From assembly GCA_042852035.1 (NCBI GenBank), contig BAAFHK010000001.1, forward strand, positions 90,001-122,000: a DNA stretch of 32,000 nucleotides, written 5' to 3'. A program made the translations under genes and the position numbers. The DNA comes from Candidatus Saccharimonadota bacterium (GTDB lineage: Bacteria > Patescibacteriota > Gracilibacteria > BD1-5 > UBA2023). Under the pieces are notes generated by a model that did no database searches, had not been told where the DNA came from, and worked only from the letters and a program-made list of their open reading frames with translations. Positions 2,829 to 31,456 of the stretch are shown one piece after another (the stretch's first letter is position 1; each line of letters begins with the position of its first letter).

Positions 2829-4063
2829 TATAAACGAATTTTTATAATTTCTCTCCCTACAGTCTGAAGAGATCGACGATAGAGGAGACTTCATTTCATA
2901 GTATTGAGCTTCATATGAGAAGGAAGGAGAGGAATAGTTCGAAAACCATACTTTTCGAGAATTTCATAGATTTCCGAAAAATATACAAATCGGTCTTCGA
3001 TATTCCAGAAAGGGAAAGACATAACAATATTCCCTGAAAATTTCAATTTTTTCAGTCAGGAGAAGAAGCCATCGTAAAGTTCAGAAAGTTTTTTTCGTTC
3101 AAGCCTTACTCTTTCAAGATTGATATCTTTACTCGACATTATTTCTCCAAGATATCCTTCACTTGCAATAACTGCTTGGCTTACCCATGAGCTATCTTTT
3201 ACTAAATTAATACGAGCAGCATCTTGCTCGAAAATAGAGGTCTGAAGGTTGCGAAAATCTTTTGTCGGAACCCCGCCAGCTTTTATGATACGCTCTTGCC
3301 AAATCTTCTCTTCTTCTATAAAGTCTGCGAGGCTTTTCTTGCTTGAATGTACCATCCGAGGAGAGATATCACTTCCATAGAGGATGTGTTTTCCCATATT
3401 TGCTCCTTCGATGAGAAATGTTCAGAGTCCACAAAATGGATCATAGAGTCAATCTCTCCCGGTATCTCATGCAATATTTATCATCATCTGACAAAGTTTC
3501 GGAGGCATCATCCCCACGACCATATCACGTGATTTTTCCGTATCTCTTTTTGCATATGCATCCACATCCTGACAGGCGAGAGTGACAGTAAGATAGGATT
3601 TTTCTCCCATTTTTAAGAGATTATATTCACTCTGACTTTTTCCAAGTCTTTCTTTCTTCCATCAAGCAGCATTAATATTCTTATTCTCGGTATTAATTAG
3701 GCGTGCTGAAATTCATTTTTCCCCAAGGGTTTTTTTAATCCTCAGACCAACATGATTTTGCTCAAAATCTTCCCCGTAGACTCAGAGGGCAAAGTGAAAT
3801 TTTCCCTCGGGTTTTCCAATATGTTCTATTACATCCGTTGCAAATTTCTTTGTCTCGGTTTCCTGAAGAACTTTCATGACACGAATTGATCCTCATATAT
3901 TGCGAAAATTTGCTATAATATCTTTTTCTTTGTCGAGGAGTTGAAATATGGTCACTTGTTCGTTATGGCAAACATAGGATTTTTCTCAAAAAATCGAAAA
4001 TAGTTCTGCGAGTGAGAGCTTCCACTCTCGACCAAGAGTAAAGGCGTAATGGTTGTTTGTCAT
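2828..4063 (-). CDS. SAM-dependent RNA methyltransferase, UPF0020/Trm11-like
   Basis: Single 411-codon frame once the many TGA are read as Gly. Motif I LYDPFCGL[G]TFLIEGA (TGA at 3422-3424), MPPKLCQMMINIA, YGSDIS, VIASEGYLGE. ATG at 4061-4063, TAA at 2828-2830. Confidence 0.8.
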
Positions 4064-9957: not shown

Positions 9958-10896
9958 ATGAATTGGGTCACTTGGATCCTTGTCATCTGTCTCCTCGTGA
10001 GCGGATGTAATGGTGAAGGAAGCACCGAAAAACCTTCTCCCGTAGAGTCCGCGTCAGCGACTACTCGTGATGTGCCTCTCGGAAGCTGTCCGAAGGATGC
10101 TCTGACACTCGTGTCATGGAACGTCATGAACTTCGGATCGAAGAAAACAGATGAGACCATCAAACGCATGTCTGACATCCTCCTCTCTCGAGGACTGATC
10201 TATCGAAATCAAGAAAAGATTCGAGCGAATATCATCCTCCTTCAAGAGGTGAACGCCGGATCTCGTACGGGTGGAGTCCAGACAGTTGCTCGTCTCGGGT
10301 CTGCCCTCGGGCAAGATTGGGACTCGGTGACGAGTGACAGTACCTCGGGTGATGGAGTCGAGCGGTATGCTATCCTCTGGGAGAAATCTGCTTTCGAGGT
10401 GAATCGTCGAGATGCTTATCTGGTGCAAGATCTCCGTGATGCGATTGATCGAGAACCCTTCGGTCTCAGGCTCACTCGAGGTGGACAATCCTTTTGGGTT
10501 TATAGCTACCACGCAGTACCGACGGCAAAAAAACCCATACGGGAAATAAAAGTCGTCAGAGGTTCGGCAGAGCTCGAGTCACGAAGTGCTGCTATCCTTG
10601 CTGGAGACTTCAATCTCGGTCGCACATCGGTGGTGGATATCTTCGCGGGATGGACTGATCACATCGACGGGAAAACCTCACTCAAGTCAACGATCGGAAA
10701 GGATGGAAGCTACCTCTCCTACCAATACGATCACATCCTCACAAAGGGTGGTGTACGAGTCTGTGAGAGTGGCATTATCGACTTCGTGTCACTCCATTTT
10801 TCTCCTGTTGATGTCGAAAACCTGAGACGTGCTCGTGAAATAAGCGACCACCTGCCCGTCTACATACGATTCACTCTGAAACCAGAAGGGAACTAA
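9958..10896 (+). CDS. Secreted endonuclease/exonuclease/phosphatase (EEP, DNase I-like) family lipoprotein
   Basis: Intact 312-aa ORF with no TGA. Signal peptide with lipobox LVSGC. LVSWNVMNFG, LLQEV, AGDFN and C-terminal SDHLPV are typical EEP motifs. Tandem stops TAA-TAG. Confidence 0.85.
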   Translation: MNWVTWILVICLLVSGCNGEGSTEKPSPVESASATTRDVPLGSCPKDALTLVSWNVMNFGSKKTDETIKRMSDILLSRGLIYRNQEKIRANIILLQEVNAGSRTGGVQTVARLGSALGQDWDSVTSDSTSGDGVERYAILWEKSAFEVNRRDAYLVQDLRDAIDREPFGLRLTRGGQSFWVYSYHAVPTAKKPIREIKVVRGSAELESRSAAILAGDFNLGRTSVVDIFAGWTDHIDGKTSLKSTIGKDGSYLSYQYDHILTKGGVRVCESGIIDFVSLHFSPVDVENLRRAREISDHLPVYIRFTLKPEGN

Positions 10897-11022
10897 TAGA
10901 GGCATTAACCTCGAACTTAAAATAAGACCTCTAGATTATACCGAAATAAATATTAGCCTCGAAGATGCGAGCAATCGCTGTCCTCAGGTTGTTGCATAGG
11001 AGAAGATTCTCCTGAGCATTTC

Positions 11023-13340: not shown

Positions 13341-13414
13341 TGGTGCTCCCGGCGAGAATCGAACTCACGTTTTGAGCTTCGGAGGCCCATGTTCTTCCAC
13401 TATACTACGGGAGC
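13341..13414 (-). tRNA. tRNA-Arg (anticodon CCG), CCA encoded
   Basis: Acceptor GCTCCCG/CGGGAGC, anticodon stem TGGGC/GCTCA with loop CTCCGAA, T-arm GTGAG-TTCGATT-CTCGC, discriminator A plus CCA. Confidence 0.9.
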
Positions 13415-13450: not shown

Positions 13451-13486
13451 CAAAAAATAAAACCTCCATTCGGAGGTTTTATTTTA
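13451..13486 (-). terminator. Intrinsic terminator ending the hom-lysS-DUF4145-zeta unit
   Basis: AAAACCTCC-ATTC-GGAGGTTTT hairpin flanked by A- and T-runs on both sides. Confidence 0.75.
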
Positions 13487-13603
13487 CTGTTTCTGTTGTG
13501 GCTTGTCGGAAGTAAGTGCGGTTTTTTTTATTTTTGGAGAAAATAGCAATCTGCTTTTTTCCAGATCACTCGATGCCTTTTTCGATTAATGTTTTGAGGT
13601 TTT

Positions 13604-14446
13604 CTAGGTTCATAAGTGGTTATTCGTGATTTTGAAGTACCAGAGCTTGAGCCAAGCCATGAAACTTCCACTTCCGCGATAATTCGCAATCAGTGTATTC
13701 TGAAAACTTTCGATGTCAAGGGTGAGACGTTCTTTATTGTAGAATACTCACATAGAGTATCATATTCTGAATTTTTTACAAAAACTTTCCAAAGTTTTTA
13801 TCCCATCATAGGTTCGGTAGGTAAACTCGTGTTTATCGATGTTATGATAGGTTTTACTCGCGACAAATAAAAATATATTATACTCATCACGAGCGCGAAA
13901 AGCATTTTCGATCGAAGAATAAAACCCATCGATAAATACAGGAACAGGAACATTCCTCATTTTGTACATCTTTCTGAGAAAGGTGTAATAAAATGAAATT
14001 CGAGGTTCTTGGAAGATAAGTGTAACCATAACCTTTCGTTCATAGTGCATGCACTGGTCGAGATTTTGTTTCACCTTTTCATAGCTCCGAAATGTTCCAT
14101 CGAAGATGAAATTCAAGTGATTATGGAAGCAGTATTTGAGAATCTTATCAGCAACTCGTACCGATGCTTTTTGGTATTCACTCGCATTCTCTCCGTTGTA
14201 ACCACGGAACATTTTCCTATATGCATCTATATCTATGACGATAAAATTCGACTTGAGATCAGAGAATATGGTCTCGAGGAATTCACTTTTTCCAGCTCAT
14301 GGAGCTCACGCAAGAAAAATAGCAGAGATATCGAGAGGATCTTTGATCGCATATTTTTCCTTCTTTCCAAAACTCTCGATGATATATTCCGCGAGTTTCT
14401 CTATTCCGGCTTCGGTGTTGTCGAATTTTGTTCGGAGATCGAGCAT
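13604..14446 (-). CDS. Zeta-toxin family P-loop kinase domain protein
   Basis: Walker A FLA[G]AP[G]AGKSEF with both glycines encoded by TGA (14306-14308, 14297-14299). VIDIDAYRKMF (zeta D-x-D-x-x-R) and FIFDGTFRS. Joins track ORF 13760-14212 across TGA. ATG at 14444-14446, TAG at 13604-13606. Confidence 0.8.
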
Positions 14447-14461
14447 CTTGAATATTACTAA

Positions 14462-15181
14462 CTAAGGAGTTTGTATTTTTTGAGCCTGTTTAGCGTCCCC
14501 TAGCTTTTTTAGTCATTGAAGTCTAGTATTTTTATCGTGTCTTTTTATGTACCATTCTTCCAAGAGAAATTCTATTAACCACTTTAATTGATCAACTTCT
14601 CATTCATCTATATCTATAATGAGGTTGATATCTTTCTCCATATGAGCTCAGATATTTCAAGTTTTTCTTAGAGTCTCAATAGCGTCAATGATATCAGTAT
14701 CGTGTATAACATTTTTTAATTCATCAATTTCATCAACCAATCGTGATTTTACTATTTTATGAAAATCACGAATCATTCATTGCAAGCATCTTCGCAAAAG
14801 TGTGGCAGAGGCCTTAGGTGAGAGTGATGCTATTTTGCATGCTTCATTATAATCTTCAATTATTGGTTCTGGAATAATTCATGAAGGGAACTGTTTTGCC
14901 AGAGAGTCAGGCACAAGTTGCCAGCTATTTATAACTTCAAATTTTGAACTAATCCCATCTTCTTCACTTTCATAATCAATATAAGATCCAAGTGTTGCAG
15001 TTACTTGATGCATTCTGCACTCGGGATTCGTACAAACGATTATGTCAGTATTAAAGTAGAGACGTTTTTTTAAGTAAACAGTTTCAATTTCAAAGTCATG
15101 ATATGAATTGGCATGGCTCGAATTAGAATCATTTACTACCATTCTTGTTCAGCAGTATGGACAATGGTTTGTATGACTCAT
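14462..15181 (-). CDS. Zn-ribbon plus DUF4145 domain protein (HEPN-like R..GN..AH motif)
   Basis: N-terminal CPYC[G]...CTNPEC. C-terminal IIEDYNEACKIASLSPKASATLLRRCLQ...AIETLRKTGNIGAHME...LIEFLLEEWY matches the DUF4145 pattern. ATG at 15179-15181, TAG at 14462-14464, 15 nt before the zeta-like gene. Confidence 0.75.
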
Positions 15182-15201
15182 AAAAAATAGTTCATTAAAA
15201 A

Positions 15202-16788
15202 TTACTTTTCTTCTTTTTCATCTACAACATGAATCGGCTTCATAAATGGAAAATACTGCACTTCTCGGATCGGCTTATCTTCGAGGAATGCAAAGAGTCG
15301 CTCACCAAATCCAAATCCACATGTCGGAGGCATCCCATGCTCGAGCATCTCGACGAAATCCCAATCTGGCATCATCGCTTCATCATCACCGCTTGCGAGC
15401 ATTTCTTGTTGTTTTTCGAAACGAGCACGTTGATCGAGCGGATCATTTAACTCTGAGTAGCCATTTCCGATTTCACTTCCTCCGAGAATCACTTGGAATC
15501 GTTCGACGGTTCCTGGATTTTTGCTACTTGCTTTCGCGAGAGGAGAGATAAGAGCCGGGTGATTCACGAGAAATGCGGGTCCAGAGATGAGCTTACGAGT
15601 ATATTTCCAGAGGGTATCGGTGAGGCGTTCGCGATTGGTTCCGTCATACTTTACCCCGAGTTCTTCGAGTTTTTTTCGCATCTCATCATCGGTTGCTGTG
15701 AGGATATCGATTCCTGTTTTTTCTTTCACTGCCGTCACATAGTCGACTCGTCTCCATTCATCGGCGAGATTGAATTCGTGCCCACGGGCAGAGAATTTTG
15801 TCTTTCCATAAACTTCGATTGCGATATATCGATACATTTCTTCGACGAGTTTCATGCCCATCTCATAATCCGCATATCCCCAGTAGAACTCCATATTCGT
15901 GAATTCCTGAAGGTGATCAGGGCTTGATCCCTCGTTTCGGAATGCTCGACCGATTTCGAAGGTCTTCGGAAATCCTCCCGCCATGAGACGTTTCTGCCAG
16001 AGTTCTCCGATAGAGATGCGAAGGTAAACATCGACATCGAAATCATTGTGATGTGTTGCGAATGGACGAGCTTCAGCTCCACCAGTTGTGTGTTCGAGAG
16101 TTGGGGTATCTACTTCGAGGAATCACTTGTTTATGAGGAAGTCACGAGTGGCTTTCCAGAACTTACTTTTGCGGATGAATGTCGCACGGAGTTCATCATC
16201 CATGGTCATATCGAGGTATCTTTTACGGTAGCGTTCGTCATCACTTTCGATCCCATGGAATTTCTCTGGAAGTGGGCGGATAGCCTTCGTGAGAAATGAG
16301 AATTCCTTCACGAAGAGGGTAAGCTCACCTTTATGGGTATAAAAAAGCTCTCACTTTACGCCGATGAAGTCTCCAAGATCGATAAGTTTTTCTGCGAATT
16401 TATAGGCTGATACTGGTTCTGTTTCTCCTGTGAGTTCAGTTTTTGACTCACTTCCGAGATTGATCGAGCAATTTTCTCTCGAGAAAAGCACTTGTATTCT
16501 TCCTGTTCCATCAGAAATCGTCGCGAAACAAATCTTCCCAAAACTTCGATGAAGCATCACTCTTCCTGCGAGGGCGATATCTCCATTTGGATTTGGTATC
16601 ACCTCTTCAACTGATCGGAATGAAGAAGTTTCTCCCTCTTCGATTTTGCTTTTGTAAGCTCAGAGAATGGCCCCAATTTGGTGGGTTGTATCAAATTTAG
16701 TCGCAAAGGGATTCACTCCAAGCGTACGGATGCGTTCGAGTTTCTTGATACGGTCGAGGGTTTCGGTAGAGTAATTTGGTGTAGACAT
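15202..16788 (-). CDS. lysS: Lysine--tRNA ligase, class II
   Basis: FEIGRAFRNEG, GGSEIGNGYSELNDP, GMPPTCGFGFGERL, and an N-terminal OB-fold region. Fragments 15202-15984, 16123-16311 and 16351-16602 are in one frame joined by TGA. ATG at 16786-16788, TAA at 15202-15204. Confidence 0.95.
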
Positions 16789-29632: not shown

Positions 29633-31456
29633 ATGTGTTGAGTTTTTGGTTATCTGGGTCGATCTGGAAAAGCTGCTCAAGAGGTTATCGCGTGACTTCA
29701 ACGTCTCGAGTATCGATGATATGATTCCGCGGGCATATGTGTACTTGATGAGAATCATGCTATAGAGGTGATTAAGGCAGTAGGAAAAGTTGGGAATCTG
29801 AAAATGAAAACGGATTCTTATAATTTTTCTTCCTATCATGCGGGAATTGGGCATACTCGGTGGGCCACTCATGGAGGGGTAACTGAGGACAATTGTCATC
29901 CACATATTTCTCAGTCAGGAAGATTTGTCGTCATCCATAATGGTATAATCGAGAATTATAGCGAACTGAAATCTGAACTTATCCAGAAGGGGTATACATT
30001 TTATTCGCAGACAGATACAGAAGTTACGGCAAAGCTCTTCGAAGATCTTTTTGATGGGAATCATATTACTACTCTTCAGAAACTCATTAAGAAGATACAT
30101 GGTGCGTATGGTCTTGTGTTTCTAGATCGAGAGCATCCAGATAAAATATTCTGAACCAAAAAGGGAAGCCCGATGGTAATCGGGTTTGGGAAGTGAGAAC
30201 GATATGTTTCGTCCGATTATAGGGCTCTTATTGGTCTTATTGATGATTATATTATTCTCGAAGACGGAGATTTGTTCCTCATGACCCCAGAAACATATAC
30301 AATCCTTTCTGAAGATACTCGAGTACAGAGGGAAACACATACTATTGATGAGGCTGAGAAACCTGCTGAACTCTGAGACTTTGAGCACTTTATGCTCAAA
30401 GAAATATATGACCAAGGATCAGTTATACGAGATGTATTTCGTGGAAGGGTTGATTTCGAAAAAGCAACTCTCCACTCAGAGACTCTCGAAGCTATCGGTC
30501 CTGATGACTATGATCGAGTGGTGATTGTGGCATCGGGGACCAGTTACCATGCTTGACTCATGGGGAAATACTATCTTGAAGAATATGCTGATCTTCCGAC
30601 TGATGTTATTGTTTCTGCAGAATTTAAGTTCAAAAAGAAATTTATTGATCCGCGTACCCTCCATGTCTTTGTTTCTCAGTCAGGAGAAACTATTGATCTT
30701 CTTGAGTGTGTAAAAATCGTGAAAGATCAGGGTGGTCATATTTTTGGTATTGTAAATGTGCCTGGATCAGCGATTGCCCGTACCTGTGGAAGGGGACTTT
30801 ATACTCGAGCTGGTATAGAGGTGTGAGTTGCGTCTACGAAAGCCTTCTCTACTCAGGTAGTGACTTTCCTTATTATGGCTCTCCATTTCGGGAAAAAGAG
30901 AAACCTCGATTATAGAAAATATCGAGATATTCTTTCTGCACTTGAACGGCTACCAGACGCTATTGAATCCCTTATTGCTAAAAAGTCTGAGATTCAGGCG
31001 GTCGCAAATACCTACTCTCAGTATAAAAACTTCTTTTTTATCGGTCGTAATGTCGAGCTTCCAATCGCAATGGAGGGATCTCTCAAGCTGAAAGAAATAT
31101 CATATATTCATTCAGAGGCGTATGCGAGCTGAGAGTTAAAACACGGTTCTATCGCCCTCATTGATGAAGATTTTCCTACGGTTATCGTCAATGGAGCTAC
31201 GTCACTCTATGAGAAAAATGTGAGTTCTGTCCAGGAAATTAAGGCGAGAAATGGGAAGGTAATTGGCGTCATTTCTTCTCTCGATAAAAAGAAAGATCTC
31301 TATGATGCAGTTTTAGAATTTGACTCGCTTCATCCAGAGGTGGACCCAATTCTTGAAGTAGTCATCCTCCAGCTCTTCTCCTATTTTGTAGCTCTTCATC
31401 TCGGACGTGAGATAGACAAGCCGAGAAATCTTGCAAAATCTGTAACCGTTGAATAA
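29633..31456 (+). CDS. glmS: Glutamine--fructose-6-phosphate aminotransferase
   Basis: Starts MC[G]VFGY with the Gly encoded by TGA at 29639-29641. GIGHTRWATHG, two SIS domains, C-terminal KPRNLAKSVTVE. Five track fragments in one frame. TAA at 31454-31456. Confidence 0.95.

Follow-up and report, generated by a model that had tools for sequence, protein, structure and literature searches.

Organization of the lysS locus

The locus described here lies in a 32,000-nucleotide (nt) stretch of a Patescibacteria contig (the window, to which all coordinates without a locus prefix refer) and is formed by two genes that follow the lysine--tRNA ligase gene lysS. Gene 1 encodes a DUF4145 protein and gene 2 a P-loop kinase of the zeta-toxin family. 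The features of the interval are listed below (aa, amino acids; pI, isoelectric point; ORF, open reading frame).

15202 to 16788, minus strand: lysS, lysine--tRNA ligase, 528 aa, three TGA = Gly codons, NCBIfam TIGR00499 lysS_bact
14462 to 15181, minus strand: gene 1, assigned to the RAZR/PD-T7-4 family, 239 aa, 20 nt 3' of lysS
13604 to 14446, minus strand: gene 2, zeta-toxin-family P-loop kinase, 280 aa, NCBI HHAS10_00990, 15 nt 3' of gene 1
13479 to 13613, minus strand: small ORF, 44 aa, pI ~10, hypothetical protein HHAS10_00980 (NCBI)
13454 to 13485, minus strand: intrinsic terminator, 14-bp stem, 4-nt loop, T-run
13341 to 13414, minus strand: tRNA-Arg(CCG), ARAGORN, Rfam tRNA 58 bits; downstream context, outside both modules

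An earlier note on this DNA had read genes 1 and 2 as one candidate toxin-antitoxin (TA) or abortive-infection module. The gene order and the two short gaps that it gave are borne out when the minus strand is translated with table 25 (TGA = Gly), which is the required reading for the genes of the interval, and lysS scores 457 bits against TIGR00499 (equivalog cut-off 427.6). The strong terminator described at the end of the unit is likewise present, as a stem of 14 pairs followed by a T-run; it is the sole strong terminator and lies directly 3' of the stop codon of the small ORF. This ORF, overlooked in the earlier inventory, fills what had appeared as a 118-nt gap between gene 2 and the terminator. 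A scan of the coding strand from the lysS stop to the gene 2 stop recovered no terminator-like site, and lysS, gene 1 and gene 2 are probably co-transcribed by read-through from lysS. Both genes are low in GC and of accessory type (33% GC in gene 1 vs 45% in lysS), and the general idea of conflict-type accessory genes was a reasonable one.

Seven of the 10 glycines of gene 1 are TGA-encoded. Three of these (G135, G175 and G178) occupy alignment columns with Gly in at least 94% of the family members, and because they coincide with near-invariant glycines the code-25 reading is confirmed. The Walker A glycines of gene 2 (G47 and G50) are also written TGA, as had been reported. The tRNA-Arg gene was considered as the integration site of an island and rejected, given that the genes lie at its 5' side and not at its 3' end.

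Genes 1 and 2 do not travel together

In order to assess the proposed pairing, the neighbourhoods of both families were compared across genomes. A homology search with the kinase recovered 53 close relatives, all of 159-281 aa and all from code-25 organisms (G or W at the TGA sites). Look-ups of two relatives and a scan of 185,579 species genomes together provided 31 kinase loci, 27 of them from the scan, whose search patterns were restrictive. Relatives of gene 1 were found within 6 kb of the kinase in none of the 31 loci, nor at ten further kinase loci (L117-L126; related loci are designated by L and a number). Conversely, two kinase hidden Markov models detected no zeta-like kinase within 5 kb of gene 1 relatives in 80 metagenome loci, and none was present at the three other code-25 gene 1 loci (L033, L034 and L127), where the neighbours are DUF4238, NUDIX plus SRA-HNH, and an ATPase with an N-terminus that looks AAA_15/OLD-like by eye. 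The co-occurrence check suggested in the earlier note thus gave no gene 1 relative at about 40 kinase loci and no kinase at 83 gene 1-family loci. Because the two families never co-occur elsewhere, the claim that the DUF4145 protein partners the zeta kinase in a two-gene system fails, and a DUF4145-zeta system is no conserved entity.

The order lysS-gene 1-gene 2 recurs on a single contig, L032, whose kinase has 100% identity to gene 2 and whose gene 1 departs from that of the window solely in carrying W at TGA sites. Because of the identical kinase, L032 is taken to derive from the window's organism and was rejected as independent support. Gene 2 is also 100% identical to a protein annotated in 'Candidatus Altimarinota bacterium' (Patescibacteria group). 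Inspection of the lysS locus in relatives, also proposed earlier, showed that the kinase is kept there in several Gracilibacteria genomes and that gene 1 is absent from the lysS-kinase interval in L001, L006, L008 and L126. In L001 and L006 lysS is 79-80% identical to that of the window and is followed by the kinase without gene 1. The content of the interval varies from genome to genome. L126, the closest relative that is not the same organism (89% identity in the kinase), carries three opposite-strand genes in it (L126:1730-3510), L001 carries one (L001:5146-6000), and in L008 it is reduced to 117 nt (L008:1165-1281) containing lysS's own terminator. The space between lysS and the kinase is a cargo slot of changing content, occupied in the window by gene 1 with its flanking spacers (15182-15201 and 14447-14461). 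Since the arrangement is unique to this organism and the slot content varies, gene 1 is an insertion specific to the window's lineage, and its presumed co-transcription with lysS is a local accident.

In L001, two class-II tRNA-synt_2 genes (515 and 553 aa) lie in tandem upstream of the kinase (L001:1713-5145). The lysS ortholog is the second of them; the first resembles LysRS as well (phmmer E 4.5e-164 against the lysS of the window).

The interval can accordingly be regarded, with good though not full confidence, as two unrelated conflict-type modules lying in tandem, each explained separately. The alternative, a single two-gene TA or abortive-infection system in which the DUF4145 protein takes the place of epsilon, could appeal to the common strand, the 15-nt spacing, the lack of an intervening terminator and the low GC of two accessory-type genes, as well as to locus L011, where a different zinc-ribbon protein with an RNxxxH motif by eye is placed directly upstream of the kinase and its small ORF. 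We regard it as highly improbable, the pairing being already largely refuted by the co-occurrence tests. The arrangement is confined to this organism, L032 being the same one, and the L126 slot holds other genes; moreover, RAZR acts alone (PMC13017515), the kinase already has an invariable downstream partner (see below), and hhalign detects no homology between the L011 zinc-ribbon protein and gene 1 (probability 0.4%).

The L011 protein (292 aa, L011:5057-5935) has an N-terminal CxxC...C and a C-terminal 'FYRNEVVHF' (RNxxxH, HEPN-like by eye), and is encoded inside a type I restriction-modification (R-M) operon with a MazF/PemK gene, directly upstream of the kinase and small ORF. It matched no entry in Pfam or PADLOC. 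A recurring HEPN-kinase association was considered for it and rejected on the hhalign value and the lack of a family match.

Gene 1 as a member of the RAZR/PD-T7-4 family

Gene 1 matches Pfam DUF4145 (PF13643) over aa 112-185 (E 1e-9, 38.8 bits, cut-off 23.1), in line with the earlier domain call. Its product consists of a Cys4 zinc-ribbon from aa 1 to about 90 (CPYCG...CTNPEC, with weak Pfam zinc-ribbon matches), a linker and a C-terminal DUF4145/HEPN domain bearing R172 and H180. Residues C7, C10, C50, C55, R172 and H180 are invariant among 52 gene 1 homologs. The protein is recognized by the PADLOC PD-T7-4 model (E 3.3e-13), as are all 52 aligned homologs.

PD-T7-4 has been renamed RAZR, the ring-activated zinc-finger RNase of E. 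coli (Zhang et al., Nature 2026, PMC13017515). It combines a Cys4 zinc-finger domain with a DUF4145 domain, a divergent HEPN RNase, and defence is abolished by either R146A or H154A (PMC13017515). The zinc-finger domain is the sensor, the most variable region and the determinant of specificity, and binds ring-shaped phage proteins (the putative recombinase Gp77 or the portal), around which 24 subunits assemble and cleave RNA non-specifically, leading to translation arrest (PMC13017515).

The profile of the gene 1 family matches the RAZR chain solved by cryo-electron microscopy (PDB 9y9c_OA) with E 9.6e-10 over RAZR residues 64-184, and the single gene 1 sequence does so with E 6.9e-4; the entry carries a 24-copy chain named 'DUF4145 domain-containing protein'. 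In the profile alignment 'vRkvGNigaH' stands opposite RAZR 'cRIVGNQAVH', so that R172 and H180 correspond to the catalytic R146 and H154 with the same R-x7-H spacing. The reading of LRKTGNIGAH as a HEPN-type R...H motif, made previously from the letters, was correct. An AlphaFold2 (AF2) model with a mean predicted local distance difference test (pLDDT) score of 89.4 is beta-rich over residues 1-90 and helical over 105-237.

Gene 1 shares with RAZR the succession of Cys4 zinc ribbon, conserved linker and C-terminal DUF4145/HEPN domain, the catalytic Arg and His aligned residue for residue, a zinc-finger domain that is the most variable part of the family (mean pairwise identity of 30% vs 65% in the linker plus HEPN), the single-gene state without conserved neighbour, and an occurrence across phyla and in prophages. 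It differs from RAZR by its low identity, by a zinc-ribbon about 25 aa longer, by the unusually conserved HEPN core of its subfamily (65% mean pairwise identity), and by being written with TGA = Gly in a Gracilibacteria-type host. From its sequence, gene 1 is assigned to the PD-T7-4/RAZR family and would as such be a complete single-gene system with no partner needed.

By analogy to the E. coli protein, the variable Cys4 zinc-ribbon would sense a ring-shaped phage protein such as the portal. Gene 1 would then assemble into a large ring, in which dimers of the HEPN (DUF4145) domain might cut single-stranded RNA non-specifically by means of R172 and H180, shutting down translation. Both the RNase activity and the phage trigger are carried over from RAZR and are presumed for gene 1.

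Several observations weigh against this assignment. Only the linker and HEPN domain of gene 1 align to RAZR, the zinc-ribbon of about 90 aa (about 65 aa in RAZR) not being alignable beyond CPxC. The structural model was built from the near-identical protein P0001, which has W at the seven TGA positions, and with Foldseek this model gave no match of E<=0.001 in the PDB, where the 9y9c HEPN is of low resolution and the entry possibly absent from the searched set. Also, no phage is known for this host. Against BFVD, Foldseek recovered one unnamed viral protein; like the PDB result, this is uninformative.

The family of gene 1 is large, with more than 7,796 matches at 44-50% identity across phyla, and no neighbour family occurs in more than 3 of the 80 metagenome loci of its relatives. 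Relatives are also present in lysogeny modules of temperate Streptococcus phages and on a few plasmids, and they match phrog_1305 end to end (E 1.8e-28). One of them is gp7 of Streptococcus phage SM1 (L128, NC_004996.1:3160-3840), which lies in the lysogeny module in the orientation of the integrase and is annotated as 'DNA binding protein'; this PHROG/GenBank name is probably wrong. The placement of gp7 suggests a prophage-encoded RAZR-type defence in streptococci.

Gene 2, a kinase of the zeta family

Gene 2 matches Pfam Zeta_toxin (PF06414) over aa 41-182 (E 6e-23, 81.8 bits, cut-off 22.3), which agrees with the second of the earlier domain calls. Its motifs comprise a Walker A AGAPGAGKS (G47-S54), IDIDAYR and DGTFR. 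The Foldseek comparison suggested previously, which for gene 1 gave no significant PDB match, was clear in the case of the kinase: with an AF2 model of pLDDT 90.6 the best matches are PezT (2p5t) and zeta (1gvn/3q8x), with E 5e-9 to 7e-8 and template modelling scores of 0.57-0.67. AvrRxo1 forms a second group (E ~4e-5), and polynucleotide kinases are further off. The C-terminal extension of about 80 aa, considered uncharacterised before, mostly belongs to the zeta fold, since alignments to zeta/PezT span 248-283 columns; approximately the last 40 aa are indeed extra relative to other Patescibacteria kinases and form two helices.

Residues K53, D72/D74, D116, T118 and R158 of gene 2 are conserved, and G117 is seen as G or as mistranslated W; K53, D74 and T118 are invariant in the kinases of the Gracilibacteria branch. 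In profile alignments K53, D74, D116, G117 and T118 correspond to K46, D67, E116, G117 and T118 of zeta, R158 aligns to R157 of PezT, and R120, at least 90% conserved in the Gracilibacteria branch, aligns to R120 of zeta. In zeta, Asp67 is the base that deprotonates the substrate and GTXR is the UDP-GlcNAc-binding motif (PMC6362051). On the grounds of domain, fold and motifs gene 2 is classed as a zeta-family enzyme whose catalytic residues are all intact, its identity to zeta/PezT being 15-19% and its pI about 9.

The wider kinase family includes 626 clusters at 50% identity with E<=1e-3, and 334 with E<=1e-10, among 1.84 billion representatives, and extends to Saccharimonadales, Parcubacteria, Kerfeldbacteria and Peregrinibacteria. 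Genes upstream of the kinase vary (gene 1, lysS, hisS, hsdR, rpsI and others), and no upstream antitoxin of the epsilon or PezA type is conserved among the kinase loci examined.

Compared to epsilon/zeta and PezAT, whose kinases act on the 3' position of UDP-GlcNAc, gene 2 has the same fold, a Walker A motif, D74 in the place of zeta D67, a similar size, a D/E-G-T-x-R motif and an Arg at the position of PezT R157. It differs in that neither an upstream epsilon/PezA antitoxin nor an omega regulator is present, in that the partner in its family is a basic protein of 44-64 aa encoded downstream (in the window overlapping the kinase stop), and in that members of the family occur solely in Patescibacteria and their putative phages.

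A conserved small ORF downstream of the kinase

In the window the start of the small ORF overlaps the 3' end of gene 2 by 10 nt. A small ORF directly follows the kinase in all 28 intact loci (24 of them distinct) obtained from the genome scan and the kinase look-ups, and does so as well in L125/L126 and on two IMG/VR viral contigs. These ORFs encode 44-64 aa and are positioned between an overlap of up to 22 nt and a gap of up to 39 nt relative to the kinase, with terminator hairpins behind them in nearly all related loci checked. In the reciprocal test, the three small-ORF relatives picked from a profile search were all located directly after a Zeta_toxin gene.

Differences between five Gracilibacteria copies are distributed over codon positions 3:1:2 as 166:90:44, and the four closest relatives show more synonymous than nonsynonymous changes. 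The small ORF is a genuine gene under purifying selection. A basic core, K-x-[IL]-[VI]-x-K-[AG]-x-x-[GA]-x-x-x-Q, is common to its copies. Together with the kinase it constitutes a bicistronic module conserved across Patescibacteria, in which translation of the small basic protein is probably coupled to that of the kinase.

The kinase ends ...CAC TTA TGA ACC TAG (13604-13613) and the small ORF takes its start codon from the ATG within TTATGA. With the standard code, such an arrangement would count as a typical ATGA stop/start overlap; in code 25 the kinase reads TGA as Gly and continues for two more codons. It was considered whether the small ORF might continue the kinase through a frameshift; in L003 and L011 the kinase ends with TAA and the small ORF begins after a 17-nt gap.

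The best promoter-like site of the region (13692-13719, minus strand; TTGACA, 16 nt, TACACT) lies within the kinase gene towards its 3' end, some 80 nt ahead of the start of the small ORF, and could provide this ORF with a transcript of its own. It is not judgeable by DNA conservation because it overlaps the conserved peptide LDIESFQNTL. Two further loci (L122:2998-4168 and L123:2998-4168) have not one but two small ORFs, of 59 and 55 aa, behind the kinase, which may reflect a duplication of the partner.

Genomic contexts of the kinase-small ORF pair

The contexts of the pair point two ways, some being of conflict type and others of housekeeping type. Among the former, the pair is found in L011 within a type I R-M operon (hsdM, MazF-like gene, hsdS, the 292-aa zinc-ribbon protein, kinase, small ORF, hsdR) and in L009 behind hsdR (hsdR, kinase, small ORF). 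In L117 it is part of an island with Fic, YafQ-RelB, an Mrr-nSTAND3 gene and an OLD-type nuclease, the last two after the pair. In L003 it has a Phd-type antitoxin, Rnl2 and hisS upstream and an IS66 transposase downstream. One of the two viral contigs with the pair encodes, by eye, a 772-aa tape-measure-like protein and an M23-like peptidase, and in the window itself a RAZR-type gene is next door. In L028 (2349-3291) the kinase gene is interrupted by roughly 100 nt of inserted DNA, with a shift of the frame, and the small ORF (3127-3291) is intact.

The L028 insert contains two copies of the hairpin CC(T/C)CGTCAGCTTGCTGCG(A/G)GG, and could be an element resembling a miniature inverted-repeat transposable element or an assembly artefact.

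Regarding the housekeeping type, the window and L126, L001, L006 and L008 share a synteny running from lysS to the gene for polynucleotide phosphorylase (PNPase), in which lysS is 79-80% and the kinase 70-74% identical. Three Saccharimonadales-like genomes have the order rpsD, rpoA, rplQ, rplM, rpsI (by eye), kinase, small ORF and a 367-aa gene, which we suspect to be prfB; in this trio the identity is about 78% for RpoA and 62-65% for the kinase.

Function of the pair and alternative explanations

The interpretation that we consider most likely, though tentatively and at somewhat below even chances, is that the pair is a zeta-type toxin with a small downstream antitoxin. The kinase would phosphorylate a UDP-sugar or another nucleotide cofactor, and the small protein would keep it in check, in the gene order of AvrRxo1-Arc1 and not that of epsilon/zeta. 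What the kinase acts on, its toxicity and the function of the small protein as an antitoxin are presumed from these known systems. AvrRxo1-Arc1 consists of a zeta-family nicotinamide adenine dinucleotide (NAD) kinase toxin with a downstream antitoxin (PMC4938570). The pair resembles it in having a short ORF in the same direction directly after the kinase, toxin first, and the broken kinase with intact small ORF of L028 recalls avrRxo1 pseudogenes that keep arc1. Differences are evident in AvrRxo1, of 378-421 aa as opposed to 235-280 aa for the kinases here, in its Patescibacteria homologs, of 742-893 aa with Fic/Doc domains, and in Arc1, of 81-121 aa with a KExFD...YExxYY motif that is lacking in the small proteins of 44-64 aa. 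The AvrRxo1/Arc1 homologs of Parcubacteria and Saccharimonas were rejected as members of the same family, being different and much longer. Since the pair has neither an epsilon/PezA gene upstream nor the Arc1 motif, and AvrRxo1 ranks below zeta/PezT in the Foldseek search, the kinase and micro-ORF are best called a new form of the zeta/AvrRxo1 type of module.

A number of observations run counter to a toxin-antitoxin role. The small ORF has no match in Pfam, PADLOC or PHROGs, and the small protein shows no similarity to epsilon, PezA or Arc1; it is basic (pI ~10), as is the kinase (~9), which is atypical for antitoxins. The kinases outside the Gracilibacteria branch (235-245 aa) have lost the Arg of GTxR, which makes the substrate uncertain. 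Finally, in two lineages the pair occupies a stable housekeeping synteny over considerable divergence, and for this reason looks domesticated rather than like an addiction module.

The main rival, then, is a Patescibacteria-specific kinase domesticated for a housekeeping or regulatory task, with the small basic protein serving as its regulatory subunit or as a nucleic-acid-binding adaptor; one possibility is that it tunes the pools of UDP-sugars and cell-envelope precursors. It is favoured by the stable lysS...PNPase order in at least five Gracilibacteria genomes and the rpsI-kinase-small ORF-367-aa gene order in the three Saccharimonadales-like genomes, by a kinase that diverges only slightly faster than lysS (73% vs 79% identity), by the invariant catalytic residues and by the basic nature of both proteins. 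UDP-GlcNAc synthesis would be plausible in this organism if the window ORF at 29633-31456, with a GlmS-like N-terminus by eye, is GlmS. We give it perhaps one chance in several, because the family is small for a universal gene (the 334 clusters with E<=1e-10 and, with restrictive patterns, only 27 loci in the species genomes), because the pair is found in R-M operons and a TA/defence island too, as well as next to a transposase and on viral contigs, and because one kinase is pseudogenised next to an intact small ORF (L028). A kinase of the PNK or PSTK kind, directed to polynucleotides or tRNA and tied to the preceding aminoacyl-tRNA synthetase genes, would account for the position behind lysS in one clade and hisS in another, the Rnl2-type RNA ligase near the kinase in L003, and the weak matches to PSTK (NCBIfam E 6.6e-4), to a PHROG polynucleotide kinase (E 2.4e-4) and, in Foldseek, to C. 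thermocellum Pnkp (E ~3e-4). It appears highly unlikely, given that zeta/PezT are clearly the best matches in sequence and fold, that the GTxR UDP-sugar motif is present, that most other kinase loci have no synthetase neighbour and that lysS in L008 ends with its own terminator before the kinase. In a more speculative reading, to which we attach a similarly low likelihood as to the domesticated kinase, the pair would be an undescribed Patescibacteria-wide module not involved in addiction, either a regulator of nucleotide-sugar or cofactor pools or an anti-phage kinase switch, kept near core genes by episymbionts; here it would share one transcript with the RAZR-type RNase, and both might act together during infection.

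Whichever applies, the DUF4145 protein is removed as a false lead in the search for the antitoxin of the zeta kinase, and the RAZR family is extended to code-25 Patescibacteria, in which its conserved glycines are written TGA, a point of help in annotation and expression. The RAZR part is already explained by a known family. The comparison also reveals, Patescibacteria-wide and on two viral contigs, a zeta-family kinase accompanied by a conserved micro-protein encoded downstream of it; in the literature searched no description was found of zeta toxins in Patescibacteria or of such a kinase-micro-protein pair, which represents a clean, testable lead. If it is a TA system, it would be a second, independent toxin-first zeta module after AvrRxo1-Arc1, with a much smaller antitoxin; if not, it would be a conserved small-genome kinase.

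Other features of the window

A predicted lipoprotein of the endonuclease/exonuclease/phosphatase family is encoded at 9958-10896 (plus strand). It lies in the single 1-kb stretch (10001-11000) whose GC fraction is 0.50, compared to 0.36-0.45 in the others, and an antisense ORF of 344 aa overlaps the lipoprotein gene.

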